Shown: positions 2,756 to 61,650 of the stretch, piece by piece | Layout: every line of letters begins with the position of its first letter | Numbering within the stretch: the stretch's first letter is position 1 | NCBI GenBank assembly: GCA_965261545.1 | Contig: CBDHDF010000007.1 | Span: forward strand, 224,001 to 288,000 | DNA length: 64,000 nt | Source of the DNA: Bdellovibrionales bacterium | GTDB lineage: Bacteria; Bdellovibrionota; Bdellovibrionia; Bdellovibrionales; UBA1609 | Direction of reading: 5' to 3' | Program-made: the position numbers and the translations under genes | Notes under the pieces: generated by a model | Seen by the model: the letters and a program-made list of their open reading frames with translations, nothing else | Databases searched by the model: none | What the model was told of the DNA's origin: nothing

Positions 2756-2760
2756 AATAG

Positions 2761-4469
2761 TTACTATGAATCTCCGGGGTAGTTTGGACGCACGAATCCA
2801 CTATCCGTTCTTCGAATTTTTTCAAATGTCCGAGTTTTTAAATCATCCTACATTACATGAAATCATACTTTTTTAACGCTCTAATCCACCTTGGTGCATT
2901 TTTTTTCACCATGAGCTTTTCATAGTCAATTCCAGGGTCTTTGTAGGGGGTGTCATTACTTATGACTGAATAAACAACTCCCATCATTTTGTGACCAACG
3001 GCAATCACTGATCTCTTGTGCCCACGCCTTATAACAAGTGATTGGTATTTGCCTTTGAATTGTGAATTCGTCTTAATAGCACTATTGGCCATCTCACATA
3101 CCAACGATTTCACATATGTGTTCGCTTTCCTCGTTCGTGAAGACTTTTTTTCCTGCGCTCTCATTATTGGATGGGCAAATCCCCATCCAGGAGCAAAAAT
3201 TTCCTTTATTTTTAAAAGACTTCACATTGCCTCCTATTTCTGCAATCAAAAGCGCTGCACTTAATTCGTCAATTCCAGGTATAGTCTGGAGTAGATGCCA
3301 CTGCCTTTCATAGGGTTTCATACGAATGAAAAGTTCTTCTTCAATTTGAGAGCATTCTTTTTTCAAAAAATCTATTCGATCAAGAATGCGTTGAAGAACA
3401 AAACGATTTTCTTCCGTCATCTTTCCCGACAGGGCGTAAGAAAATTCTTCGGTCTTTTGACGTAAAGACCCTCTGGCAAGAGACATCAATTTAGAAACTG
3501 ATCTCTCTCCATTAGCTATGGCACGAATCATGGCCATACCAGATACGCAGTCAGCTTTAGACATTGCATAGGTTAAACGAATGCCTGAATATTCAAGAAC
3601 CTTATACATACGATTTTGTTCCGAAGATATTTGGCGGATCGTTTTTGTACGATAACGAGCCAAAAGTCTAATAGAACGAATCTCACGTGGAGGAATGAAG
3701 CTAGCTCTTAGAAGACCACAAGCACCAAGCTCTGCAATCCACTGGCTATCCAACACGTCAGTTTTTTTACCAGTAATATTTTTGACATGAAAGGCATTGA
3801 TAACATCTACTTCATAACCTTTTTCTGTCAAATCATCGTATAAAGAATTCCAATAAATCCATCCCTGTGCTCTCAAAAAGAACTCTCTCAACCTTATGTG
3901 GCTTCATCCAAGAGCGCATTCTAGGAAAATTTTTTGGAAAATTCTTGAACTCTTTTGTGAAAAACTTCTTCTTACCGTCTTCCACTTTGACAATCGTACA
4001 CATCAACATATGTTGATGAACATCTATTCCACAAACAGAACTATAAATAATATCCACATGACTCCTCCTTTCTGTTAGAAAAAAAGAAGGTGATAAAACT
4101 AGAGCCTTGGGATTTTGCCATAAATTCTAAAGCGAAAATAGGTCAACTTACTATACGTCCATACACTCAGAGTGCAGGTACATGCGTGGGTTCGATCCAA
4201 AGCTCAAGACCATGTTACTTCACGGAATTAAAATTACCAATCTATTCAACGGCCACTCATCTTATCACCTTCCAATAATGTTATTGCTTTATCCTTTATT
4301 GTATCGGAATCATACATGACAAAAATACCATCAAAAGTCCAGAGTAACTAAAAGAGGCCAATTATATAGACCAGCGAAGCTGTCCACCGAGTTGCTTCGT
4401 GCAAAGAAGTGGGGGCCTAGATAAGATTCATGGGCGTGGGTGGGGAAGCAAGGCGCCCCCATGAATGTT
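2761..4469 (-). mobile_element. IS110-family element, copy 1 (recombinase doubly frameshifted)
   Basis: Same sequence as the intact copies except a 4-bp ATCC duplication near 3858 and an A7 rather than A9 tract. AA core at both ends. Confidence 0.95.
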
Positions 4470-4815
4470 ACACATTTTCCATATTGGTGACTTTGGAAGT
4501 ATCCCAACCACTGACATCTGGGTTTGCCTTGATGGCTCCTAAAAACATACCTTTCATATCTTTAACCATAGAGGTGTCCCACCCACTTGTATCTGGATTT
4601 ACCTCAGCGGCATTTCGAAATAAATTCGCCATATCAACAACCTTGGAGGTATTCCAGCTACTTGTATTTGGATTTGCCTTGGTGGTCCCCAAAAACATAC
4701 CTCTCATATCTTTAACCATAGAGGTGTCCCAACCATTCGTATCTGGTATGGCTAAAACAGCTCTGTGAAACATATTTTTCATATTCGTAACAGCTGACAT
4801 ATTTCCTCCAAGGAC
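4470..4815 (-). repeat. 346-bp duplicated fragment of the BspA-repeat gene
   Basis: Matches 8572-8917 and 6521-6866. Confidence 0.95.
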
Positions 4816-6520
4816 TTACTATGAATCTCCGGGGTAGTTTGGACGCACGAATCCACTATCCGTTCTTCGAATTTTTTCAAATGTCCGAGTTTTTAAATCA
4901 TCCTACATTACATGAAATCATACTTTTTTAACGCTCTAATCCACCTTGGTGCATTTTTTTTCACCATGAGCTTTTCATAGTCAATTCCAGGGTCTTTGTA
5001 GGGGGTGTCATTACTTATGACTGAATAAACAACTCCCATCATTTTGTGACCAACGGCAATCACTGATCTCTTGTGCCCACGCCTTATAACAAGTGATTGG
5101 TATTTGCCTTTGAATTGTGAATTCGTCTTAATAGCACTATTGGCCATCTCACATACCAACGATTTCACATATGTGTTCGCTTTCCTCGTTCGTGAAGACT
5201 TTTTTTCCTGCGCTCTCATTATTGGATGGGCAAATCCCCATCCAGGAGCAAAAATTTCCTTTATTTTTAAAAGACTTCACATTGCCTCCTATTTCTGCAA
5301 TCAAAAGCGCTGCACTTAATTCGTCAATTCCAGGTATAGTCTGGAGTAGATGCCACTGCCTTTCATAGGGTTTCATACGAATGAAAAGTTCTTCTTCAAT
5401 TTGAGAGCATTCTTTTTTCAAAAAATCTATTCGATCAAGAATGCGTTGAAGAACAAAACGATTTTCTTCCGTCATCTTTCCCGACAGGGCGTAAGAAAAT
5501 TCTTCGGTCTTTTGACGTAAAGACCCTCTGGCAAGAGACATCAATTTAGAAACTGATCTCTCTCCATTAGCTATGGCACGAATCATGGCCATACCAGATA
5601 CGCAGTCAGCTTTAGACATTGCATAGGTTAAACGAATGCCTGAATATTCAAGAACCTTATACATACGATTTTGTTCCGAAGATATTTGGCGGATCGTTTT
5701 TGTACGATAACGAGCCAAAAGTCTAATAGAACGAATCTCACGTGGAGGAATGAAGCTAGCTCTTAGAAGACCACAAGCACCAAGCTCTGCAATCCACTGG
5801 CTATCCAACACGTCAGTTTTTTTACCAGTAATATTTTTGACATGAAAGGCATTGATAACATCTACTTCATAACCTTTTTCTGTCAAATCATCGTATAAAG
5901 AATTCCAATAAATCCCTGTGCTCTCAAAAAGAACTCTCTCAACCTTATGTGGCTTCATCCAAGAGCGCATTCTAGGAAAATTTTTTGGAAAATTCTTGAA
6001 CTCTTTTGTGAAAAACTTCTTCTTACCGTCTTCCACTTTGACAATCGTACACATCAACATATGTTGATGAACATCTATTCCACAAACAGAACTATAAATA
6101 ATATCCACATGACTCCTCCTTTCTGTTAGAAAAAAAGAAGGTGATAAAACTAGAGCCTTGGGATTTTGCCATAAATTCTAAAGCGAAAATAGGTCAACTT
6201 ACTATACGTCCATACACTCAGAGTGCAGGTACATGCGTGGGTTCGATCCAAAGCTCAAGACCATGTTACTTCACGGAATTAAAATTACCAATCTATTCAA
6301 CGGCCACTCATCTTATCACCTTCCAATAATGTTATTGCTTTATCCTTTATTGTATCGGAATCATACATGACAAAAATACCATCAAAAGTCCAGAGTAACT
6401 AAAAGAGGCCAATTATATAGACCAGCGAAGCTGTCCACCGAGTTGCTTCGTGCAAAGAAGTGGGGGCCTAGATAAGATTCATGGGCGTGGGTGGGGAAGC
6501 AAGGCGCCCCCATGAATGTT
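4816..6520 (-). mobile_element. IS110-family element, copy 2 (A7 frameshift)
   Basis: 1705 bp. ORF split into 5149-6108 and 4908-5219. Confidence 0.95.
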
Positions 6521-6866
6521 ACACATTTTCCATATTGGTGACTTTGGAAGTATCCCAACCACTGACATCTGGGTTTGCCTTGATGGCTCCTAAAAACATA
6601 CCTTTCATATCTTTAACCATAGAGGTGTCCCACCCACTTGTATCTGGATTTACCTCAGCGGCATTTCGAAATAAATTCGCCATATCAACAACCTTGGAGG
6701 TATTCCAGCTACTTGTATTTGGATTTGCCTTGGTGGTCCCCAAAAACATACCTCTCATATCTTTAACCATAGAGGTGTCCCAACCATTCGTATCTGGTAT
6801 GGCTAAAACAGCTCTGTGAAACATATTTTTCATATTCGTAACAGCTGACATATTTCCTCCAAGGAC
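6521..6866 (-). repeat. 346-bp duplicated fragment of the BspA-repeat gene
   Basis: Matches 8572-8917. Part of a 2051-bp tandem unit. Confidence 0.95.
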
Positions 6867-8571
6867 TTACTATGAATCTCCGGGGTAGTTTGGACGCACG
6901 AATCCACTATCCGTTCTTCGAATTTTTTCAAATGTCCGAGTTTTTAAATCATCCTACATTACATGAAATCATACTTTTTTAACGCTCTAATCCACCTTGG
7001 TGCATTTTTTTTCACCATGAGCTTTTCATAGTCAATTCCAGGGTCTTTGTAGGGGGTGTCATTACTTATGACTGAATAAACAACTCCCATCATTTTGTGA
7101 CCAACGGCAATCACTGATCTCTTGTGCCCACGCCTTATAACAAGTGATTGGTATTTGCCTTTGAATTGTGAATTCGTCTTAATAGCACTATTGGCCATCT
7201 CACATACCAACGATTTCACATATGTGTTCGCTTTCCTCGTTCGTGAAGACTTTTTTTCCTGCGCTCTCATTATTGGATGGGCAAATCCCCATCCAGGAGC
7301 AAAAATTTCCTTTATTTTTAAAAGACTTCACATTGCCTCCTATTTCTGCAATCAAAAGCGCTGCACTTAATTCGTCAATTCCAGGTATAGTCTGGAGTAG
7401 ATGCCACTGCCTTTCATAGGGTTTCATACGAATGAAAAGTTCTTCTTCAATTTGAGAGCATTCTTTTTTCAAAAAATCTATTCGATCAAGAATGCGTTGA
7501 AGAACAAAACGATTTTCTTCCGTCATCTTTCCCGACAGGGCGTAAGAAAATTCTTCGGTCTTTTGACGTAAAGACCCTCTGGCAAGAGACATCAATTTAG
7601 AAACTGATCTCTCTCCATTAGCTATGGCACGAATCATGGCCATACCAGATACGCAGTCAGCTTTAGACATTGCATAGGTTAAACGAATGCCTGAATATTC
7701 AAGAACCTTATACATACGATTTTGTTCCGAAGATATTTGGCGGATCGTTTTTGTACGATAACGAGCCAAAAGTCTAATAGAACGAATCTCACGTGGAGGA
7801 ATGAAGCTAGCTCTTAGAAGACCACAAGCACCAAGCTCTGCAATCCACTGGCTATCCAACACGTCAGTTTTTTTACCAGTAATATTTTTGACATGAAAGG
7901 CATTGATAACATCTACTTCATAACCTTTTTCTGTCAAATCATCGTATAAAGAATTCCAATAAATCCCTGTGCTCTCAAAAAGAACTCTCTCAACCTTATG
8001 TGGCTTCATCCAAGAGCGCATTCTAGGAAAATTTTTTGGAAAATTCTTGAACTCTTTTGTGAAAAACTTCTTCTTACCGTCTTCCACTTTGACAATCGTA
8101 CACATCAACATATGTTGATGAACATCTATTCCACAAACAGAACTATAAATAATATCCACATGACTCCTCCTTTCTGTTAGAAAAAAAGAAGGTGATAAAA
8201 CTAGAGCCTTGGGATTTTGCCATAAATTCTAAAGCGAAAATAGGTCAACTTACTATACGTCCATACACTCAGAGTGCAGGTACATGCGTGGGTTCGATCC
8301 AAAGCTCAAGACCATGTTACTTCACGGAATTAAAATTACCAATCTATTCAACGGCCACTCATCTTATCACCTTCCAATAATGTTATTGCTTTATCCTTTA
8401 TTGTATCGGAATCATACATGACAAAAATACCATCAAAAGTCCAGAGTAACTAAAAGAGGCCAATTATATAGACCAGCGAAGCTGTCCACCGAGTTGCTTC
8501 GTGCAAAGAAGTGGGGGCCTAGATAAGATTCATGGGCGTGGGTGGGGAAGCAAGGCGCCCCCATGAATGTT
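6867..8571 (-). mobile_element. IS110-family element, copy 3 (A7 frameshift)
   Basis: 1705 bp. ORF split into 7200-8159 and 6959-7270. Confidence 0.95.
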
Positions 8572-9931
8572 ACACATTTTCCATATTGGTGACTTTGGAA
8601 GTATCCCAACCACTGACATCTGGGTTTGCCTTGATGGCTCCTAAAAACATACCTTTCATATCTTTAACCATAGAGGTGTCCCACCCACTTGTATCTGGAT
8701 TTACCTCAGCGGCATTTCGAAATAAATTCGCCATATCAACAACCTTGGAGGTATTCCAGCTACTTGTATTTGGATTTGCCTTGGTGGTCCCCAAAAACAT
8801 ACCTCTCATATCTTTAACCATAGAGGTGTCCCAACCATTCGTATCTGGTATGGCTAAAACAGCTCTGTGAAACATATTTTTCATATTCGTAACAGCTGAC
8901 ATATTTCCTCCAAGGACTTTCTTAAGGAGAGAATTACCTTTAAATGCACGAGATAGATCTTTCCATCCCATATTGCCAAAATTGACAACCTCGAAGAGTA
9001 AATTTCTTGAAGATACTGAGGTATTTTCAAAGCCCTCACAAGTACCTATTATCCTCATCGTATATTCTCCAGCTTTCGCATAGGTATGTCTCTTGTCAGT
9101 ATCCTGAAAAGATGTCACCTCGCTAACAGCAGTTTGATCTCCCCAATCCACAGTAAAATTATATTTAAGACTTGAACTTTCTTTAAGGGGAAGGGTGAAT
9201 GAAAAATCACCTTCAGGAATACGCCATTTTGTGACAAAGTGATTAATCTCGTTGGTTACGGAGGACTTGGCTACAAAATTGACGTCACTTTGACTTGCCT
9301 TGATAACAGCTGGATGAGATGATATGTCTTGCACATCAAAATTTCCTGAAAACGTGTTGTCTTGTGTGCATGATAAAATCTTTTCTACATTGGGTTCCCC
9401 AATAACAACAGTGACATCTCCAAGGTTGGAATCGCAAGTACCTTTTATGTTATAGTCTGCCATATTGGATGAAGAAATGGCAGACAATTCCTTGAAGCTC
9501 AAATCTATTGGAATGAGAATGAGATTATTATCAACAGTGACACTCTGCTTGTTTCCTTTATGGGTGACCGTAATAGTGGCTTTTTTTGAAGTGATTTGTC
9601 GGGTATCAACATATCCTGAGAAAGTATTGGAACGACAGGGTACTTCTACAGGTTTGGTTATGGGCTCTCCAATAACTATCGAAACATTTCCATTTCCCCC
9701 CAAAGCTGAATGGCAGGCTCCCCAAACAAGATATTCGCTCGCATTGGCTGAAGAAATTGGCAGAAGTGATCCATTGATACTAAGTTTTGTAACACTGAAA
9801 ACCTTTGTCTTTTTTCTATTTGATCCTTTATCACAACCCACAAAAATCATTAGAGATAAAATGAATAAAAAGTGAAACTTTAAATATTTTTTGACTATCA
9901 TGATGAATTTCCTCAAGTTGACATTTTTCAA
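8570..9931 (-). pseudogene. BspA-family (DUF285) repeat surface lipoprotein, truncated at the C-terminus by IS insertion
   Basis: Lipobox-like IFVGC, PKD-like YNFTVDWGD..HTYAKAGEY, ~22-aa repeats WDTSxVxxMxxMF. The stop codon lies at the IS110 junction in mid-repeat. Confidence 0.85.
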
Positions 9932-31078: not shown

Positions 31079-32793
31079 GTAACTATTCAGGGGGTGCTGC
31101 ATTAATTCGAACAATTTTTTTAAAAAAAGTATAAAAATTCTTGACAAGTTTTTGAAGCAAACGACCTCTTTCATTTGTTCTTTATCGAATATGTTCCTGC
31201 ATATGGCTTAAACTCTCTGAGAGCCATAGTATTGAAAGATTGTGAAACATAGGTCGCGGGGGGCACTTCTCATTCCTTTTGCTTCTTAGAACGAATCCTA
31301 GTGCATTTTTTTTAATGAAAAAAAGGCATGTTAATATTTTCATAAGGTAAGTATGAAAATAGAAAATATTGACGTGTCTTCAGCCATAAATAAAATCAGG
31401 AAGCTTCTTAAGAAAGAGAAGTCCCTTTCTCCCGCTTTTATTGTGGCCATTGAGTTGTTGATCAAAATCATCACTATTCTAGTAAATCAAAAAAAATTAA
31501 ATAGTCAAAACAGTAGTATTGCCCCTTCTCAAGATCCGAATGGCCCTAAAAAGAAACCTAAGGAAGAAACTGGTAAGAAGCCAGGAGGACAACCCGGACA
31601 CGAAGGAGCTACTTTAAAACCCGTGGATACTCCAGACAAGGTGGAGTTCATTTCTATTAATAAAGAGGAACTTCCTCCAGGTGATTACATTTCTTCTGGA
31701 GTTGAAAAGCGTCAAGTATTTGAGGTAGACCTTTCTGTGCATGTCACGGAGTATCAAGGAGAAATCCTCGAAGACCAAGATGGGAATCAGTGGGTTGCAG
31801 GTTTTCCAGAAGGAATCAATAACCCAACTCAATATGGCCCTTCTGTGAAAGCTCACTCAGTTTATATGTCCCAGTTTCAGTTAATCCCTCATCTTCGAGT
31901 CGCAAGTTACTTTAATCAATGGGGTCTATCGCTTGCTGGATCTACGGTACACAATTTTAACAAATCTGCCTTTGAGGCTCTGGAAGCTTTTGAGGAGTGG
32001 GCAAAGGAAACTCTTCTGAACTCACCTTTGATTCATGCTGACGAAACTGGAGTGAATGTTAATGGGAAGAGGCTGTGGTTTCACCTCTTGTCCAATGATA
32101 CTGTGGTTCTCTATCAGGTGGACGAAAAAAGAGGCGCAGAGGCTATGGATCGCATGGGAATTCTTCCAAAATACACAGGGATTGTTTGTCATGACCATTG
32201 GAAACCTTATTATACATATACTTCCTGCATTCATGCCCTTTGCAATGCGCACCATTTAAGGGAGCTTCAAAGAGCTTGGGAGCAAGATGATCAAAAATGG
32301 GCAAAAGAAATGAAGTCTCTTTTAGAGACAATAAACAAAGAGGTGCACGATACGCAGAACCAATGCCTTTCACAAGACCGAATTGAATATTACAAAGAGA
32401 AATATCGAAATATTCTCTTCGAAGGGGAAAAGGAATCTCCATTAATGGAGAGGACAGAGAAAAAAAAGAAGGGAAAGGTTAAACAATCCAAATCTAGAAA
32501 TTTACTAGATCGACTGAGAAACTTTGAAGATGATACCTTGCTCTTTATGAAGGACCCCATAGTTCCATTTACGAATAATATAGCAGAAAATGATCTGAGA
32601 ATGACCAAAGTTCAGCAGAAAATATCTGGGTGCTTTCGTTCGTTGATGGGAGCCAAGACATTTTGTAGAAACCGAAGCTTTCTCCTGACTTGCCAGAAAA
32701 ATGGCATAGAACCTAAAGATGCTCTAAATATGCTATTTCAAGGAAAACTTCCCTCATTTATGACTCGAATTCGCCCACCCCCTGAATAGTTAC
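31079..32793 (+). mobile_element. IS66-family element (single-ORF ISBst12 type), intact
   Basis: 18-bp IR GTAACTATTCAGGGGGTG; 8-bp TSD TTTTACTC. Confidence 0.95.
31353..32789 (+). CDS. IS66 transposase TnpC
   Basis: NSQNSSIAPSQD, PGGQPGHEG, HADETG, CNAHHLREL, FTNNIAENDLR, KISGCFRS. Confidence 0.95.
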   Translation: MKIENIDVSSAINKIRKLLKKEKSLSPAFIVAIELLIKIITILVNQKKLNSQNSSIAPSQDPNGPKKKPKEETGKKPGGQPGHEGATLKPVDTPDKVEFISINKEELPPGDYISSGVEKRQVFEVDLSVHVTEYQGEILEDQDGNQWVAGFPEGINNPTQYGPSVKAHSVYMSQFQLIPHLRVASYFNQWGLSLAGSTVHNFNKSAFEALEAFEEWAKETLLNSPLIHADETGVNVNGKRLWFHLLSNDTVVLYQVDEKRGAEAMDRMGILPKYTGIVCHDHWKPYYTYTSCIHALCNAHHLRELQRAWEQDDQKWAKEMKSLLETINKEVHDTQNQCLSQDRIEYYKEKYRNILFEGEKESPLMERTEKKKKGKVKQSKSRNLLDRLRNFEDDTLLFMKDPIVPFTNNIAENDLRMTKVQQKISGCFRSLMGAKTFCRNRSFLLTCQKNGIEPKDALNMLFQGKLPSFMTRIRPPPE

Positions 32794-38946: not shown

Positions 38947-39186
38947 TAAGTAAATTAAGAGATTAAACCATGGTTTTTTTATGGGTAAAGTAATGAGGGG
39001 GATAAATCATGGAAATTGAATTATTTTCTTGGTTTTTAATGCGGTAATTCTGCGACGTCGAAATTAGGCCCATTTTCTGTTGAGAAACTCGGATATACCC
39101 CAAAATATCATAGAGAGTCTTCTTCTTGCTTCATTAGCGGCTCACCTCACATCAAGTGTTGTTTTGAGGATAGGAAGAACTAAAGT

Positions 39187-42100
39187 AACATTCATGGGGG
39201 CGCCTTGCTTCCCCACCCACGCCCATGAATCTTATCTAGGCCCCCACTTCTTTGCACGAAGCAACTCGGTGGACAGCTTCGCTGGTCTATATAATTGGCC
39301 TCTTTTAGTTACTCTGGACTTTTGATGGTATTTTTGTCATGTATGATTCCGATACAATAAAGGATAAAGCAATAACATTATTGGAAGGTGATAAGATGAG
39401 TGGCCGTTGAATAGATTGGTAATTTTAATTCCGTGAAGTAACATGGTCTTGAGCTTTGGATCGAACCCACGCATGTACCTGCACTCTGAGTGTATGGACG
39501 TATAGTAAGTTGACCTATTTTCGCTTTAGAATTTATGGCAAAATCCCAAGGCTCTAGTTTTATCACCTTCTTTTTTTCTAACAGAAAGGAGGAGTCATGT
39601 GGATATTATTTATAGTTCTGTTTGTGGAATAGATGTTCATCAACATATGTTGATGTGTACGATTGTCAAAGTGGAAGACGGTAAGAAGAAGTTTTTCACA
39701 AAAGAGTTCAAGAATTTTCCAAAAAATTTTCCTAGAATGCGCTCTTGGATGAAGCCACATAAGGTTGAGAGAGTTCTTTTTGAGAGCACAGGGATTTATT
39801 GGAATTCTTTATACGATGATTTGACAGAAAAAGGTTATGAAGTAGATGTTATCAATGCCTTTCATGTCAAAAATATTACTGGTAAAAAAACTGACGTGTT
39901 GGATAGCCAGTGGATTGCAGAGCTTGGTGCTTGTGGTCTTCTAAGAGCTAGCTTCATTCCTCCACGTGAGATTCGTTCTATTAGACTTTTGGCTCGTTAT
40001 CGTACAAAAACGATCCGCCAAATATCTTCGGAACAAAATCGTATGTATAAGGTTCTTGAATATTCGCATTCGTTTAACATTCATGGGGGCGCCTTGCTTC
40101 CCCACCCACGCCCATGAATCTTATCTAGGCCCCCACTTCTTTGCACGAAGCAACTCGGTGGACAGCTTCGCTGGTCTATATAATTGGCCTCTTTTAGTTA
40201 CTCTGGACTTTTGATGGTATTTTTGTCATGTATGATTCCGATACAATAAAGGATAAAGCAATAACATTATTGGAAGGTGATAAGATGAGTGGCCGTTGAA
40301 TAGATTGGTAATTTTAATTCCGTGAAGTAACATGGTCTTGAGCTTTGGATCGAACCCACGCATGTACCTGCACTCTGAGTGTATGGACGTATAGTAAGTT
40401 GACCTATTTTCGCTTTAGAATTTATGGCAAAATCCCAAGGCTCTAGTTTTATCACCTTCTTTTTTTCTAACAGAAAGGAGGAGTCATGTGGATATTATTT
40501 ATAGTTCTGTTTGTGGAATAGATGTTCATCAACATATGTTGATGTGTACGATTGTCAAAGTGGAAGACGGTAAGAAGAAGTTTTTCACAAAAGAGTTCAA
40601 GAATTTTCCAAAAAATTTTCCTAGAATGCGCTCTTGGATAAAGCCACATAAGGTTGAGAGAGTTCTTTTTGAGAGCACAGGGATTTATTGGAATTCTTTA
40701 TACGATGATTTGACAGAAAAAGGTTATGAAGTAGATGTTATCAATGCCTTTCATGTCAAAAATATTACTGGTAAAAAAACTGACGTGTTGGATAGCCAGT
40801 GGATTGCAGAGCTTGGTGCTTGTGGTCTTCTAAGAGCTAGCTTCATTCCTCCACGTGAGATTCGTTCTATTAGACTTTTGGCTCGTTATCGTACAAAAAC
40901 GATCCGCCAAATATCTTCGGAACAAAATCGTATGTATAAGGTTCTTGAATATTCAGGCATTCGTTTAACCTATGCAATGTCTAAAGCTGACTGCGTATCT
41001 GGTATGGCCATGATTCGTGCCATAGCTAATGGAGAGAGATCAGTTTCTAAATTGATGTCTCTTGCCAGAGGGTCTTTACGTCAAAAGACCGAAGAATTTT
41101 CTTACGCCCTGTCGGGAAAGATGACGGAAGAAAATCGTTTTGTTCTTCAACGCATTCTTGATCGAATAGATTTTTTGAAAAAAGAATGCTCTCAAATTGA
41201 AGAAGAACTTTTCATTCGTATGAAACCCTATGAAAGGCAGTGGCATCTACTCCAGACTATACCTGGAATTGACGAATTAAGTGCAGCGCTTTTGATTGCA
41301 GAAATAGGAGGCAATGTGAAGTCTTTTAAAAATAAAGGAAATTTTTGCTCCTGGATGGGGATTTGCCCATCCAATAATGAGAGCGCAGGAAAAAAAGTCT
41401 TCACGAACGAGGAAAGCGAACACATATGTGAAATCGTTGGTATGTGAGATGGCCAATAGTGCTATTAAGACGAATTCACAATTCAAAGGCAAATACCAAT
41501 CACTTGTTATAAGGCGTGGGCACAAGAGATCAGTGATTGCCGTTGGTCACAAAATGATGGGAGTTGTTTATTCAGTCATAAGTAATGACACCCCCTACAA
41601 AGACCCTGGAATTGACTATGAAAAGCTCATGGTGAAAAAAAATGCACCAAGGTGGATTAGAGCGTTAAAAAAGTATGATTTCATGTAATGTAGGATGATT
41701 TAAAAACTCGGACATTTGAAAAAATTCGAAGAACGGATAGTGGATTCGTGCGTCCAAACTACCCCGGAGATTCATAGTAACCTATGCAATGTCTAAAGCT
41801 GACTGCGTATCTGGTATGGCCATGATTCGTGCCATAGCTAATGGAGAGAGATCAGTTTCTAAATTGATGTCTCTTGCCAGAGGGTCTTTACGTCAAAAGA
41901 CCGAAGAATTTTCTTACGCCCTGTCGGGAAAGATGACGGAAGAAAATCGTTTTGTTCTTCAACGCATTCTTGATCGAATAGATTTTTTGAAAAAAGAATG
42001 CTCTCAAATTGAAGAAGAACTTTTCATTCGTATGAAACCCTATGAAAGGCAGTGGCATCTACTCCAGACTATACCTGGAATTGACGAATTAAGTGCAGCG

Positions 42101-42592
42101 CTTTTGATTGCAGAAATAGGAGGCAATGTGAAGTCTTTTAAAAATAAAGGAAATTTTTGCTCCTGGATGGGGATTTGCCCATCCAATAATGAGAGCGCAG
42201 GAAAAAAAGTCTTCACGAACGAGGAAAGCGAACACATATGTGAAATCGTTGGTATGTGAGATGGCCAATAGTGCTATTAAGACGAATTCACAATTCAAAG
42301 GCAAATACCAATCACTTGTTATAAGGCGTGGGCACAAGAGATCAGTGATTGCCGTTGGTCACAAAATGATGGGAGTTGTTTATTCAGTCATAAGTAATGA
42401 CACCCCCTACAAAGACCCTGGAATTGACTATGAAAAGCTCATGGTGAAAAAAAATGCACCAAGGTGGATTAGAGCGTTAAAAAAGTATGATTTCATGTAA
42501 TGTAGGATGATTTAAAAACTCGGACATTTGAAAAAATTCGAAGAACGGATAGTGGATTCGTGCGTCCAAACTACCCCGGAGATTCATAGTAA
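39187..42592 (+). mobile_element. IS110 copy 4, split by self-insertion of copy 5
   Basis: 5' part 39187-40077 (with a 2-bp deletion near 40066); 3' part 41781-42592 resumes at TAA|CCTATGC. Confidence 0.93.
40076..41780 (+). mobile_element. IS110 copy 5 (A7 frameshift), inserted within the recombinase gene of copy 4
   Basis: Junctions CGTTT-AA-CATTC and ATAGT-AA-CCTAT. Confidence 0.95.
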
Positions 42593-42810
42593 ACTACCCC
42601 GGAGATTCATAGTAACATTCATGGGGGCGCCTTGCTTCCCCACCCACGCCCATGAATCTTATCTAGGCCCCCACTTCTTTGCACGAAGCAACTCGGTGGA
42701 CAGCTTCGCTGGTCTATATAATTGGCCTCTTTTAGTTACTCTGGACTTTTGATGGTATTTTTGTCATGTATGATTCCGATACAATAAAGGATAAAGCAAT
42801 AACATTATTG

Positions 42811-42997
42811 GAAGGTGATAAGATGAGTGGCCGTTGAATAGATTGGTAATTTTAATTCCGTGAAGTAACATGGTCTTGAGCTTTGGATCGAACCCACGCA
42901 TGTACCTGCACTCTGAGTGTATGGACGTATAGTAAGTTGACCTATTTTCGCTTTAGAATTTATGGCAAAATCCCAAGGCTCTAGTTTTATCACCTTC
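42811..42997 (+). ncRNA. Putative bridge RNA (target loop plus donor loop), present in every IS110 left end
   Basis: 11-bp closing stem GAAGGTGATAA/TTATCACCTTC; two internal loops whose strands match target and donor sequences. Transcript boundaries are unknown. Confidence 0.75.
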
Positions 42998-43025
42998 TTT
43001 TTTTCTAACAGAAAGGAGGAGTCAT

Positions 43026-44228
43026 GTGGATATTATTTATAGTTCTGTTTGTGGAATAGATGTTCATCAACATATGTTGATGTGTACGATTGTCAAAGTG
43101 GAAGACGGTAAGAAGAAGTTTTTCACAAAAGAGTTCAAGAATTTTCCAAAAAATTTTCCTAGAATGCGCTCTTGGATGAAGCCACATAAGGTTGAGAGAG
43201 TTCTTTTTGAGAGCACAGGGATTTATTGGAATTCTTTATACGATGATTTGACAGAAAAAGGTTATGAAGTAGATGTTATCAATGCCTTTCATGTCAAAAA
43301 TATTACTGGTAAAAAAACTGACGTGTTGGATAGCCAGTGGATTGCAGAGCTTGGTGCTTGTGGTCTTCTAAGAGCTAGCTTCATTCCTCCACGTGAGATT
43401 CGTTCTATTAGACTTTTGGCTCGTTATCGTACAAAAACGATCCGCCAAATATCTTCGGAACAAAATCGTATGTATAAGGTTCTTGAATATTCAGGCATTC
43501 GTTTAACCTATGCAATGTCTAAAGCTGACTGCGTATCTGGTATGGCCATGATTCGTGCCATAGCTAATGGAGAGAGATCAGTTTCTAAATTGATGTCTCT
43601 TGCCAGAGGGTCTTTACGTCAAAAGACCGAAGAATTTTCTTACGCCCTGTCGGGAAAGATGACGGAAGAAAATCGTTTTGTTCTTCAACGCATTCTTGAT
43701 CGAATAGATTTTTTGAAAAAAGAATGCTCTCAAATTGAAGAAGAACTTTTCATTCGTATGAAACCCTATGAAAGGCAGTGGCATCTACTCCAGACTATAC
43801 CTGGAATTGACGAATTAAGTGCAGCGCTTTTGATTGCAGAAATAGGAGGCAATGTGAAGTCTTTTAAAAATAAAGGAAATTTTTGCTCCTGGATGGGGAT
43901 TTGCCCATCCAATAATGAGAGCGCAGGAAAAAAAAAGTCTTCACGAACGAGGAAAGCGAACACATATGTGAAATCGTTGGTATGTGAGATGGCCAATAGT
44001 GCTATTAAGACGAATTCACAATTCAAAGGCAAATACCAATCACTTGTTATAAGGCGTGGGCACAAGAGATCAGTGATTGCCGTTGGTCACAAAATGATGG
44101 GAGTTGTTTATTCAGTCATAAGTAATGACACCCCCTACAAAGACCCTGGAATTGACTATGAAAAGCTCATGGTGAAAAAAAATGCACCAAGGTGGATTAG
44201 AGCGTTAAAAAAGTATGATTTCATGTAA
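43026..44228 (+). CDS. IS110-family DEDD recombinase (intact, 400 aa)
   Basis: GIDVH / FESTG / KTDVLD (DEDD RuvC-like), TIPGI, SNNESAG serine motif. AGGAGGAG RBS with GTG start. Confidence 0.96.
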   Translation: MDIIYSSVCGIDVHQHMLMCTIVKVEDGKKKFFTKEFKNFPKNFPRMRSWMKPHKVERVLFESTGIYWNSLYDDLTEKGYEVDVINAFHVKNITGKKTDVLDSQWIAELGACGLLRASFIPPREIRSIRLLARYRTKTIRQISSEQNRMYKVLEYSGIRLTYAMSKADCVSGMAMIRAIANGERSVSKLMSLARGSLRQKTEEFSYALSGKMTEENRFVLQRILDRIDFLKKECSQIEEELFIRMKPYERQWHLLQTIPGIDELSAALLIAEIGGNVKSFKNKGNFCSWMGICPSNNESAGKKKSSRTRKANTYVKSLVCEMANSAIKTNSQFKGKYQSLVIRRGHKRSVIAVGHKMMGVVYSVISNDTPYKDPGIDYEKLMVKKNAPRWIRALKKYDFM

Positions 44229-44318
44229 TGTAGGATGATTTAAAAACTCGGACATTTGAAAAAATTCGAAGAACGGATAGTGGATTCGTGCGTCCAAACT
44301 ACCCCGGAGATTCATAGT

Positions 44319-46025
44319 AACATTCATGGGGGCGCCTTGCTTCCCCACCCACGCCCATGAATCTTATCTAGGCCCCCACTTCTTTGCACGAAGCAACTCG
44401 GTGGACAGCTTCGCTGGTCTATATAATTGGCCTCTTTTAGTTACTCTGGACTTTTGATGGTATTTTTGTCATGTATGATTCCGATACAATAAAGGATAAA
44501 GCAATAACATTATTGGAAGGTGATAAGATGAGTGGCCGTTGAATAGATTGGTAATTTTAATTCCGTGAAGTAACATGGTCTTGAGCTTTGGATCGAACCC
44601 ACGCATGTACCTGCACTCTGAGTGTATGGACGTATAGTAAGTTGACCTATTTTCGCTTTAGAATTTATGGCAAAATCCCAAGGCTCTAGTTTTATCACCT
44701 TCTTTTTTTCTAACAGAAAGGAGGAGTCATGTGGATATTATTTATAGTTCTGTTTGTGGAATAGATGTTCATCAACATATGTTGATGTGTACGATTGTCA
44801 AAGTGGAAGACGGTAAGAAGAAGTTTTTCACAAAAGAGTTCAAGAATTTTCCAAAAAATTTTCCTAGAATGCGCTCTTGGATGAAGCCACATAAGGTTGA
44901 GAGAGTTCTTTTTGAGAGCACAGGGATTTATTGGAATTCTTTATACGATGATTTGACAGAAAAAGGTTATGAAGTAGATGTTATCAATGCCTTTCATGTC
45001 AAAAATATTACTGGTAAAAAAACTGACGTGTTGGATAGCCAGTGGATTGCAGAGCTTGGTGCTTGTGGTCTTCTAAGAGCTAGCTTCATTCCTCCACGTG
45101 AGATTCGTTCTATTAGACTTTTGGCTCGTTATCGTACAAAAACGATCCGCCAAATATCTTCGGAACAAAATCGTATGTATAAGGTTCTTGAATATTCAGG
45201 CATTCGTTTAACCTATGCAATGTCTAAAGCTGACTGCGTATCTGGTATGGCCATGATTCGTGCCATAGCTAATGGAGAGAGATCAGTTTCTAAATTGATG
45301 TCTCTTGCCAGAGGGTCTTTACGTCAAAAGACCGAAGAATTTTCTTACGCCCTGTCGGGAAAGATGACGGAAGAAAATCGTTTTGTTCTTCAACGCATTC
45401 TTGATCGAATAGATTTTTTGAAAAAAGAATGCTCTCAAATTGAAGAAGAACTTTTCATTCGTATGAAACCCTATGAAAGGCAGTGGCATCTACTCCAGAC
45501 TATACCTGGAATTGACGAATTAAGTGCAGCGCTTTTGATTGCAGAAATAGGAGGCAATGTGAAGTCTTTTAAAAATAAAGGAAATTTTTGCTCCTGGATG
45601 GGGATTTGCCCATCCAATAATGAGAGCGCAGGAAAAAAAAAGTCTTCACGAACGAGGAAAGCGAACACATATGTGAAATCGTTGGTATGTGAGATGGCCA
45701 ATAGTGCTATTAAGACGAATTCACAATTCAAAGGCAAATACCAATCACTTGTTATAAGGCGTGGGCACAAGAGATCAGTGATTGCCGTTGGTCACAAAAT
45801 GATGGGAGTTGTTTATTCAGTCATAAGTAATGACACCCCCTACAAAGACCCTGGAATTGACTATGAAAAGCTCATGGTGAAAAAAAATGCACCAAGGTGG
45901 ATTAGAGCGTTAAAAAAGTATGATTTCATGTAATGTAGGATGATTTAAAAACTCGGACATTTGAAAAAATTCGAAGAACGGATAGTGGATTCGTGCGTCC
46001 AAACTACCCCGGAGATTCATAGTAA
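44319..46025 (+). mobile_element. IS110 copy 7 (intact)
   Basis: Right junction ATAGT-AA-CTATTCAGGGGG equals the IS66 terminus. Confidence 0.96.
44731..45933 (+). CDS. IS110-family DEDD recombinase (intact, 400 aa)
   Basis: Same protein as 43026-44228. Confidence 0.96.
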   Translation: MDIIYSSVCGIDVHQHMLMCTIVKVEDGKKKFFTKEFKNFPKNFPRMRSWMKPHKVERVLFESTGIYWNSLYDDLTEKGYEVDVINAFHVKNITGKKTDVLDSQWIAELGACGLLRASFIPPREIRSIRLLARYRTKTIRQISSEQNRMYKVLEYSGIRLTYAMSKADCVSGMAMIRAIANGERSVSKLMSLARGSLRQKTEEFSYALSGKMTEENRFVLQRILDRIDFLKKECSQIEEELFIRMKPYERQWHLLQTIPGIDELSAALLIAEIGGNVKSFKNKGNFCSWMGICPSNNESAGKKKSSRTRKANTYVKSLVCEMANSAIKTNSQFKGKYQSLVIRRGHKRSVIAVGHKMMGVVYSVISNDTPYKDPGIDYEKLMVKKNAPRWIRALKKYDFM

Positions 46026-46254
46026 CTATTCAGGGGGTGGGCGAATTCGAGTCATAAATGAGGGAAGTTTTCCTTGAAATAGCATATTTAGAGCATCTTT
46101 AGGTTCTATGCAAAATTTCACCTAGTTTGACCCACCCAATTTCACCTGGTTTGACCCACCCAATTTCACGAAGTTTGACCCACTGAATTTCACCAAACAT
46201 TGACCCACTTAGATCTTCATAGATATTCTTTCTGCGCTACGCATTAACGAGGAG

Positions 46255-50697: not shown

Positions 50698-50800
50698 GTA
50701 ACTGTTCAGGGGGTAGCAGAGTTCAAGAGGTAAATTGCTCCTTCTTACCAGAGAAAATATAAATCTCTCTCTGTAAACTCATGCCCCCCTGAATAGATAC
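50698..50800. mobile_element. 103-bp IS66-derived MITE
   Basis: Ends GTAACTGTTCAGGGGG and CCCCCTGAATAGATAC; 8-bp TSD AAATATTT; absent from IS4-D copy 1 (~35776). Confidence 0.9.
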
Positions 50801-59096: not shown

Positions 59097-61650
59097 CAAT
59101 GGCATTCGTTTAGTGAGAGATCCCATTCGGTTAAGGATTTGAACCTCTAACTCCTCGGGGGTGGGCTAACCCCAAGTTTTTTTCTTTGATCCATGTGATT
59201 ATCCGTTGGCCATAGCCCCCCTAACCTCTTTACTGGGTCTCCATACTCCGATGGGTTTTCTAGAAACTCGGTCGTAATGCCTATTCGGACGTAGCCTTTG
59301 TCGGCAGGTCTTCATATTTGTAATGATGCAATTGAGGGTTTTACTAAGCACTACCTTTTGTTGAAGAAAAAGACCTTCAATATTTCTTGCAATTGTCAGT
59401 AAATTGTTTTTAAAGTTTGTCTGCATGGTTTGTTTTTTACTATGGGATTGAGATGTATTAAGACGGTCTTCCGTGTAGTTGGAAAATAATCTTGTCAGAG
59501 TGATAAGTGTGAAGTGTGCAAACAATTCTTGTTTGACTCCCCTTTCACTTTGAGAATGAAACTCTTCAATGGTCATCAGTTCTTTGGATATTTTGTACAG
59601 TTCCTCTATACTCCAGCGTCCATGATAGAGATTGGCCAGATCATCAATGGAATATTTTTTTTGATCCATTAAGGTTGTTCCTAGAACAAAAGTAGTTTGT
59701 CCAATTTTATATTTGACCAAACGCAAAGCGTAGGCTTTGAAGTCGTCTTGTGGCTTTTTTTTATGTAGTTCTTTCAGAATTTGCTTGCTAGGAATGACTT
59801 GGATCACTGAGTCTTTTTGATCATTATTAATAAATTCATCAAAAACAGTGTTGGCATTTCTCCTTATCCTAAACACCGCATGCAGACTTCGCACCTTATG
59901 CTCATGAAGCATTTCGTAGGAATAATAGCCACGATCATAAACCACAACATCGTTTTCAAACAATTTTTTGAAATGAGTTTGTGCAGCCTTTCTCTCATTG
60001 TTATGGGCAAAGAGATCAAAATCCACAGGAATCTTCGACTGTAGTTGGTACAGGCAACTGACAAGACCTTGAGGGTACCATGCTTTTTCCCATGGTTGCT
60101 GATACCCATTATCTACGAGTTGACGTGGTAAATTTATTTTCGATCCATCCACTGCGAAAACCTTATGGCCCTTCCATAAGGTACTAGAATTGGATATACC
60201 GTCTTGTTTAAGAATTTCATCATGCAAAACTTTAAATATATTTTCATCTACTTTAGCCCGTGCACTACACATAGTGGATGCCCGAACTGGTTTAGGTTGA
60301 GGGAGTTCAATGTCTAATATGCGACACTGCTCCCAAAGTTCAATCAAAGTTGTATCATAACCTTGTTTTCCTTTAGAGAAAACAAGTCGGAAGATGAAAA
60401 GTATAATCAACAATGTATTCAAGACACGTTGACGCTTTTGCCAGGTTCGGTCGTACTCATCTGCAATGATAACCACTGTCTTGATGATGTTTTGCCAAAG
60501 ATGCACAAAAGAGTCCTCTAGCATAGGCTCAGCCAAGTTCTTATGTGGCTTGATGGTGGGTTTCCCGACGGGTTTCTTGATAGCGCATTGGGGGCCATTC
60601 AATAAGATAGACTGATAATTCTTTGTCAGAGGTTGAACATAAACACCTTTTTGAGTTTTTCCCTTTACATTTTTGTAGGCACGACTCCCATTTGTTTTGC
60701 CCAAATAAAGCCAGTTGGCAGCACGATAGCTCGTGGCATTAAATTTGGTAAGGTCGACAAAAGTCTCCATGAGTACAGGTTTGAAAGCATGTTTTAACTC
60801 CCAGTCTGTGGGAAGTTGGCGAGTTGCCATAGATAAAGCCATCGAAGCAAGATGGCGAACCTTTACCCAGGGAAAGATCAAAAATCGACTATTGTTCACC
60901 ACTAAATTCAAGTGCTTTTTGTAAGCTCGATTTTGCCAACCGATCCATTCATCACGGCAAGGCAAAGTGGATGTGCCAGCTTCAAATAAAAGACAACCCA
61001 ATCTTCGCCCACAATTATCTAAGATGAAATAGCGTAAGTGGGGACCAAAGGGACGTCTGTAATTGAGATAATGATGCCGATCGACAACTTCATTCCATTC
61101 CTTAATGGCCTCTTGATCAGTTACGATTTGCAAAGAAAGTGGGGTCAATGAGTCTAGTTTATCGTTGATGAGAGGCTTTTCATCTGTTCGGTGTGTCCAA
61201 GTGATTTTTTTGGAGGGGACACTCCGCTTTGACATGTCTTTTTCTGGCAGGGATAGAATGTCAAGTTCCTCTAGCGTCTCAAGCATACGAAGGCACGATT
61301 GGATGCGATGATCACCTTTGGGAGTTAGCCAACCAAGATGTTCACAAACTGTATAACCCAGTTCACGGCGACTTAAAGAAGGAAATAGCGCCACCGTCTT
61401 TTGAATGTCGGCAATTTGCTTGCGCGTCAAGCGTCTTCCAAAAAAAGTTGTTGAAGGCAATGTCTCTATGCGTGGGTCCATTTGAGTCTCTCCCCTTTGG
61501 GAATGGTTCAAATATAATGTGACACAACGATGGGGTGGACTCAAGTATTTTTTTTCGGAAAAAGAAAAAAGATAAAAGCCCCCTTAACTCAGTATGTTAG
61601 AGGGAGTCAGAAAAATGTGGAAAAACCTTCTGCAAAAACGAATGCCATTG
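59097..61650 (-). mobile_element. IS4-family element F encoding a DUF4338-transposase fusion
   Basis: IR CAATGGCATTCGTTT; 10-bp TSD CCTGTACGCC. Confidence 0.93.
59199..61481 (-). CDS. DUF4338 (DruA-like) domain fused to IS4 DDE transposase, ~760 aa
   Basis: RHHYLNY, RDEWIGW, NNSRFLIFPWV, ETFVD, YRAANW, followed by AVDGS, YDRGY, YHGRWSIEELYK. Confidence 0.88.
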   Translation of the reverse strand: MDPRIETLPSTTFFGRRLTRKQIADIQKTVALFPSLSRRELGYTVCEHLGWLTPKGDHRIQSCLRMLETLEELDILSLPEKDMSKRSVPSKKITWTHRTDEKPLINDKLDSLTPLSLQIVTDQEAIKEWNEVVDRHHYLNYRRPFGPHLRYFILDNCGRRLGCLLFEAGTSTLPCRDEWIGWQNRAYKKHLNLVVNNSRFLIFPWVKVRHLASMALSMATRQLPTDWELKHAFKPVLMETFVDLTKFNATSYRAANWLYLGKTNGSRAYKNVKGKTQKGVYVQPLTKNYQSILLNGPQCAIKKPVGKPTIKPHKNLAEPMLEDSFVHLWQNIIKTVVIIADEYDRTWQKRQRVLNTLLIILFIFRLVFSKGKQGYDTTLIELWEQCRILDIELPQPKPVRASTMCSARAKVDENIFKVLHDEILKQDGISNSSTLWKGHKVFAVDGSKINLPRQLVDNGYQQPWEKAWYPQGLVSCLYQLQSKIPVDFDLFAHNNERKAAQTHFKKLFENDVVVYDRGYYSYEMLHEHKVRSLHAVFRIRRNANTVFDEFINNDQKDSVIQVIPSKQILKELHKKKPQDDFKAYALRLVKYKIGQTTFVLGTTLMDQKKYSIDDLANLYHGRWSIEELYKISKELMTIEEFHSQSERGVKQELFAHFTLITLTRLFSNYTEDRLNTSQSHSKKQTMQTNFKNNLLTIARNIEGLFLQQKVVLSKTLNCIITNMKTCRQRLRPNRHYDRVSRKPIGVWRPSKEVRGAMANG

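Follow-up and report, generated by a model that had tools for sequence, protein, structure and literature searches.

Repeated insertion of an IS110-family element at the ends of IS66 elements, with restoration of the IS66 terminus, in a Bdellovibrionales genome

Members of the IS110 superfamily that home on other mobile elements have been described in several systems. IS4321 and IS5075 of the IS1111 group insert at the terminal repeats of Tn3 transposons of the Tn21 type, for which the term "safe harbour" has been used, and also at off-target look-alikes (PMC8269217). ISEc21, which is of the IS110 type, aims at other ISs inside IS3-family transposase genes, and the order of guides given for seekRNAs is top-strand-first in IS1111 members and the reverse in the only IS110 member assayed (Siddiquee et al. 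2024, PMC11187229). For IS621, published accounts describe a left-end RNA with target and donor loops, an 11-bp target, a 2-bp core, a handshake dinucleotide, and a recombinase with DEDD residues and a serine (Durrant et al. 2024, PMC11208160; PMC13626964). Expanding IS110 loci with tandem modules, one-sided half-match junctions, and local duplications are covered by two further reports (Hu et al. 2026, 10.64898/2026.08.14.744561; Sun et al. 2025, 10.1101/2025.10.25.684509), the latter setting out a one-sided transfer route and the former stating in general terms that insertion destroys the site.

We analyzed a window, a stretch of 64,000 nucleotides from a Bdellovibrionales bacterium (GCA_965261545.1, contig CBDHDF010000007.1, positions 224,001 to 288,000), together with the rest of its genome. 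Like IS4321 and IS5075, the IS110 element in this window belongs to the IS110 superfamily and seeks out the conserved terminus of a different mobile element. IS4321 and IS5075 are said to split the 38-bp repeat by inserting inside it, whereas the window element, which targets IS66 and whose non-coding region lies upstream of the transposase gene, has its crossover at bases 3-4 and restores the end. With ISEc21 it shares the habit of an IS110-type element aimed at another IS, although ISEc21 strikes the coding region and the window element the IS66 end. The RNA, target, core, handshake, and DEDD-plus-serine features listed for IS621 are all common to the window element. Relative to IS621, the differences are a recombinase of 400 aa versus 328 aa, an AA core, a long target half on the right-end side, and a guide order mirrored relative to the transposase strand, with a 5' guide predicted to pair with the top strand. 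This top-strand-first order, which the element has in common with its clade, resembles that of the IS1111 seekRNAs, yet the RNA lies upstream. Tandem modules, one-sided half-match junctions, and local duplications recur here as in the loci of Hu et al. and Sun et al., but insertion of the window element restores its target and would thus constitute a separate route to tandem arrays. No IS66-end target for an IS110 element was found in the literature searched; ISfinder, logo figures, or bioRxiv supplements could hold one. End-targeting of other elements is already known, and the rebuilt, reusable target is the distinct part. We consider it very likely that this is a bridge recombinase element with a left-end bridge RNA programmed against the first 11 bases of IS66, whose end is rebuilt and can be used again.

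Junctions in the window and across the genome

The resident IS66 element is 1,715 bp long, has a single ORF matching PF03050 (DDE_Tnp_IS66), ends in GTAA, and is flanked by 8-bp duplications. A single-ORF DDE_Tnp_IS66 transposase, GTAA ends, and an 8-bp duplication are features described for the ISBst12 group (PMC12898284), and by these features the resident element fits that group of the IS66 family. The IS110 target is its first 11 bases, GT-AA-CTATTCA (GTAACTATTCA), which lie wholly inside the IS66 repeat, the flank outside the repeat being variable host DNA. A free copy occupies 31079..32793 on the plus strand (transposase 31353-32789; 8-bp duplication TTTTACTC), and both of its ends are perfect, unoccupied targets, in agreement with the sequence-only reading that had drawn attention to this locus. 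That reading had also listed an IS66-type MITE (50698..50800, plus strand) among the unoccupied targets, but it is a poor target and not equivalent to the IS66 ends: its ends, GTAACTGTTCAG and GTATCTATTCAG, each carry one mismatch to the target, and ends of these types hold right-end junctions at 0/13 and 0/14.

The right cluster in the window contains four IS110 copies, all on the plus strand. Outer copies A, B, and C span 39185..44320: copy A (39186-40078 plus 41778-42592) is split by copy B (40075-41780), copy C (42613-44320) is intact, and a 23-bp duplication lies between copies A and C. Innermost is copy D (44318..46025), an intact unit of 1,705 bp with TAA at both limits. At 46022 the G of GTAACTATTCAGGGGG follows directly on ...GATTCATA, and the sequence from this point agrees for ~90 bp with the right end of the free copy of IS66 (32793), making up the rebuilt right end of an inverted IS66 (46022..46108, minus strand; terminal base G46022) before an IS21 element begins at 46109. 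On the far side of the cluster, GTAA is present at 39185-88 after an IS4 stretch (39101-39184), the last bases of which, 39177..39184 (plus strand), are one half of an IS66 8-bp target duplication, GAACTAAA. The partner of GAACTAAA flanks IS110 at an IS66 left end near G000:C7:311414-314877.

The left cluster (2761..8573, minus strand) holds three IS110 copies with a duplicated ~346-bp piece of a DUF285 gene between them, these pieces being one-sided local duplications. Next to it, the first 9 bp of an IS66 right end (2756..2764, minus strand) read GTAACTATT and abut an IS21 end. The sequence-only reading had cautioned that 9 bp could be chance; they are not, as IS21 cut the IS66 inverted repeat and duplicated 5 bp (AATAG), and what remains of this repeat was recovered outside the window at G000:C7 ~222010, ~2 kb to its left. 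That both clusters sit at IS66 termini is borne out by the 8-bp duplication partner that each has at an IS66 left end elsewhere; because the two halves now lie apart, later rearrangements must have separated them. One-sided right-end junctions at window 2761-8922 and at G000:C7:311414-314880 duplicate IS110 with its upstream flank, of 346 bp or ~50 bp, and in the window this amplifies a piece of the DUF285 repeat gene. The window also contains, at 59199-61544, a 781-aa ORF in which a DruA-like domain is fused to a DDE transposase domain.

Genome-wide, 37 IS110 right-end junctions were classified: 15 at whole IS66 ends, one at the cut end, 10 in tandem, 6 inside IS110, and 5 others, namely three local duplications, one MITE end, and one host-gene site. 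The sequence-only reading had proposed counting the flanks of all copies. This count placed 16 of the 18 outer right-end junctions at ends of the resident IS66, or 17/18 with the MITE end, so that most of the copies whose right junction can be read are at IS66 ends. As IS66 ends make up 34 of 3,780 GTAAC sites, the binomial probability of 16/18 is ~3e-31 when sites are treated as independent. The occupied MITE end is IS66-type and matches at 6/7 positions, and the host-gene exception is a perfect 11-mer. Insertions at IS66 ends occupy 16/34 ends at the same base, and the element thus shows the repeated, independent insertion at one base of another element's terminal repeat that marks end-targeting elements of the IS4321 type.

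Occupancy follows the 11-mer GTAACTATTCA closely, with 16/36 perfect sites occupied, 1/54 with one mismatch outside the core, 0/26 with one mismatch in the core, and 3/748 and 0/287 in the two classes of two-mismatch sites. By end class, IS66 ends are occupied at 16/34, the two MITE end types at 0/13 and 0/14, and ends of a second IS66 family at 0/20 (Fisher p 7e-8 for IS66 versus the other classes pooled). Only three perfect 11-mers exist outside IS66 and one of these is occupied, a rate like 16/34, which argues that sequence alone is enough for targeting and that IS66 is targeted as the source of nearly every perfect site. Each of the nine aberrant right junctions joins at a native AA, which identifies AA as the core.

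Outer left junctions have an 8-bp duplication partner in 17 of 33 cases, corresponding to nine IS66 insertions, four of them occupied at both ends. Twelve of the 16 junctions that have no partner were examined, and eight of these have an uninterrupted paralogue. Five paralogue hosts have no GTAA at the junction point, which fits delivery of the GTAA by an IS66-type end, and one paralogue has a core-mismatch MITE end (the IS110 right end there being lost), a possible exception to the 0/14. Two further exceptions, one at a native GTAAC and one at a host TTAT, are off-target or one-sided events. At G000:C10:1021312-1009933, a copy of IS110, both of whose junctions are present, sits in the donor-guide sequence of the element itself (TATAGTAA, left-end position ~317-324). 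The genome also contains ~105-bp non-autonomous IS110 minis that begin like the left end and finish in a CATTCATAG right end (G000:C6:3545-3650, C3:20866-20971, C10:576454-576557, C2:289234-289134, C11:725852-725958). Most of them lie at older ends of the IS66 type, which suggests an earlier wave with the same end-targeting habit. A second IS with CAATGCCG ends (~120 copies) was considered as another element targeting IS66 repeats and rejected, since only 4-5 of its ~120 flanks fit and the consensus is loose.

An empty allele with a single copy of the 8 bp was found for C11:861.2-865.7 kb in public contigs from four runs, which represent at most three samples, some of them possibly related to the source sample and not fully independent. 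In one of these (run X3, contig positions 684-4096), IS110 and IS66 are joined gap-free at another flank. In runs X1 and X3, where the tested site is unoccupied, IS110 and IS66 have close to single-copy depth, so a recent IS burst may have taken place in the assembled strain relative to these populations.

The IS66 end after insertion and the predicted guide RNA

The first 14 bp of the IS66 repeat are whole in 15 of the 16 occupied ends, and the 16th was cut later by IS21, while for nine IS66 insertions the 8-bp duplication is kept outside IS110. The earlier claims that the IS66 terminus is rebuilt and that insertion is non-destructive are thus upheld, the second at the level of sequence. The IS66 end is rebuilt because the IS110 right end also finishes in GT-AA, and since each of the 11 target bases is restored the site should be available for reuse. 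A guide dinucleotide alike in both guides occurs in only 2/19 relatives and right ends finishing in GT in 7/19, and the GT fit may therefore be pre-adaptation as much as selection.

By the chemistry of IS621 and the covariation described below, the left-end RNA would be expressed and would base-pair with its targets, and insertion would proceed through a circular or direct-transfer intermediate. The 5' guide UGAAUAG would pair with CTATTCA and the 3' guide GUAA with the GTAA stretch, with strand exchange at the AA core. The IS110 donor junction is ...CATA-GT-AA-CATTC, which shares GTAAC with the target. IS66's own GT would then end up in the left junction, an identical GT being supplied by the IS110 right end, and this would rebuild the IS66 end base for base and leave the 8-bp duplication outside IS110. 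As a full target again, the rebuilt end would accept later copies between the old copy and IS66.

The structure of the arrays agrees with this order of growth. IS110 arrays mix haplotypes (contigs C1 and C2 and the window), and in three arrays with later interruptions it is the outer copy that is broken and the inner copy that is whole. We infer that tandem arrays appear to have grown from inside by reuse of the rebuilt site. Ten tandem junctions were counted versus 5.6 extra insertions expected under a Poisson model in which rebuilt ends are hit at the same rate; tandem junctions, which mimic the circle junction, could alternatively arise by local duplication or insertion at donor-like junctions.

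Copy D encodes a 400-aa recombinase (44731..45933, plus strand; Pfam PF01548 and PF02371) in which D12-E62-D99-D102 and S299 are present. The protein matches the IS621 and ISCro4 structures, and its DEDD RuvC domain and C-terminal domain with the catalytic serine place it in the IS110 family. According to the junction census, the ends have no terminal inverted repeats and there is no target duplication beyond the short shared core. The non-coding stretches, 413 bp upstream and ~90 bp downstream of the transposase, have the layout of the IS110 group, although the guide order of that group, in which the 5' guide goes with the bottom strand as in IS621 and ISEc21, is reversed here, the 5' guide pairing by prediction with the top strand. 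Neither the downstream non-coding region nor the 11-13 bp sub-terminal inverted repeats of the IS1111 group are present, the sole inverted match being the 8-bp ATGAATCT, ~37 bp inside the IS110 left end. Copy D has an A9 tract at window 45633-45641 (IS110 positions ~1316-1324), and in many copies A7 or A8 shifts the reading frame near codon 306. The related proteins P0005 and P0006 likewise have 314 aa, and slippage, programmed frameshifting, or sequencing error are possible sources of the A-tract variants.

Sequence matches and covariation point to a non-coding RNA with guides to target and donor, the match of the 5' donor guide being poor. The left end, 413 bp long, can be aligned with those of relatives at 39-48% protein identity. 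The predicted fold comprises a stem, an internal loop, and an inner hairpin with compensatory changes, and was matched by 0/500 shuffles in a comparison that does not control for relatedness. The segment holding both target guides (44534..44580, plus strand) has 93.7% of cells paired and 13 two-sided changes across 18 sequences, while the target loop differs from the minimum-energy fold of the single sequence (z 0.91). Within it, the putative 5' target guide UGAAUAG (44540..44546, plus strand) is complementary to CTATTCA, IS66 bases 5-11, and the putative 3' target guide GUAA with a handshake-like CA (44570..44575, plus strand) corresponds to IS66 bases 1-4 and the first two left-end bases, respectively. 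The candidate 3' donor guide UAUAGUAA (44633..44640, plus strand) matches the right end CATAGTAA. A promoter scan found no sigma-70 promoter.

Covariation with the flanks was assessed in the relatives by permutation tests that ignore relatedness and thus give optimistic p values. Matches of the 3' target guide to the left flank numbered 71 versus 48.9 permuted (p 5e-5; n=18), those of the handshake bases to the left-end start 35/36 versus 21.3 (p 5e-5), and those of the 3' donor guide to the right end 93/96 versus 71.5 (p 5e-5; n=16). In 16-18 relatives the 3' guides have the sequence of the top strand. For the 5' target guide the match to flanks was weak (36 versus 29.6 permuted, p 0.06). Rows left out of these tests were the query, L144 (no loop parsed), L101 (tandem flank), L077 (near-duplicate), and those lacking flank, and L065 was dropped for the right-end tests only. 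A 41%-identical relative shows little more than a CTAA target at the 29 sites read (44 matches, genome G390). Its loci include L114, L118, L124, and L154. Given this relative and the weak 5' guide, the long guide match rests on one genome, and the long IS66 match is particular to the window element.

Proteins P0002-P0007 and P0015 are 65-80% identical to the recombinase. A single-protein scan found no close relatives with DNA. At E<=1e-60 there were 2 weak matches among 389 other genomes of the class. A scan of 400 genomes of the phylum gave none, and 108 family genomes yielded one short match and no IS110 or IS66 protein match near it. An IS66 match was present in five non-self rows, from four loci, among 178 loci, and the junction pattern had 12 matches in viral contigs, none with IS context.

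Alternative readings and significance

The IS110 left end itself resembles IS66 ends, with 11/16 and 12-14/20 positions identical in ungapped alignment and the same GTAAC start and G-run register. In-register chimeras of the left end with an IS66 or MITE end, both lacking a duplication, occur at C6:298118 and C2:284803, and palindromic 51-bp elements of left-end sequence with perfect 8-bp duplications are present at G000:C2:618569-618619 and C6:99928-99978. It is conceivable, if rather improbable, that IS110 is a commensal hitchhiker which rebuilds the IS66 end on its inside and offers its own left end as a substitute on its outside, so that the IS66 transposase could move either IS66 alone or the whole composite. 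The GT match and the end likeness would then have been selected to keep IS66 mobile, and the 51-bp elements would be MITEs of the substitute end. These elements can be true MITEs or deletion scars of doubly occupied IS66, similar to the products of Tn10 near-precise excision. Composite hopping left no trace in a search for second halves or, by inspection, in haplotype linkage. Capture of the left end from an IS66 MITE was also considered and is unlikely, as relatives share an xTAAC..CAT..CCCC..ATGAA motif clade-wide. An IS256-like element (373-aa ORF, family assigned by eye; G000:C10:129197-130998 and dozens of further copies) carries a 64-bp piece ~95% identical to IS110 left-end positions 83-147.

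We regard it as very unlikely that IS110 is recruited by the transposase or the end complex of IS66, the guide match being secondary. Such recruitment would accord with the near-exclusive use of IS66-type ends by outer copies (17/18, one MITE end included) and with the weak 5' guide in relatives, but the one occupied site among three perfect 11-mers outside IS66 and the avoidance of MITE ends apparently moved by IS66 (0/27), which differ by one base, both speak against it. Equally slim is the prospect that IS66 transposition, acting through the IS66-like left end, multiplied one or two IS110 insertions as a composite, leaving the sites non-independent. The end likeness, the two 51-bp elements with their duplications, and the X3 contig with its different flank would fit such spread; against it, IS110 is found at 7 left ends, at 8 right ends, and at both ends of 4 elements, and IS110 and IS66 haplotypes are unlinked by inspection. 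The left-end hairpin motif is clade-wide, chimeric ends have no duplication, and the 51-bp elements are explicable as deletion scars. Composite spread can add to targeting but not replace it. An assembly artefact from collapsed or mis-joined repeats is the least credible account, for although the genome is very repeat-rich, A-tract lengths vary, and public runs show an unoccupied allele at the locus examined, site-specific duplications of 8 bp and 5 bp agree across the junctions and the short-read X3 contig spans IS110 and IS66 gap-free.

Targeting by a left-end bridge RNA, the reading that we favour, would make this element a natural case of a bridge-RNA insertion that restores its own full target, which would explain stacked IS110 arrays by repeated insertion. 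It suggests a design rule for editing, whereby donor and target half-sites that share core-adjacent bases would give a reusable landing pad, and avoiding such shared bases would prevent multiple insertions. This one genome also provides a natural specificity series of perfect, guide-mismatch, and core-mismatch sites. For the ~400-aa clade as a whole, the mirrored guide order matters for predicting or reprogramming its RNAs.
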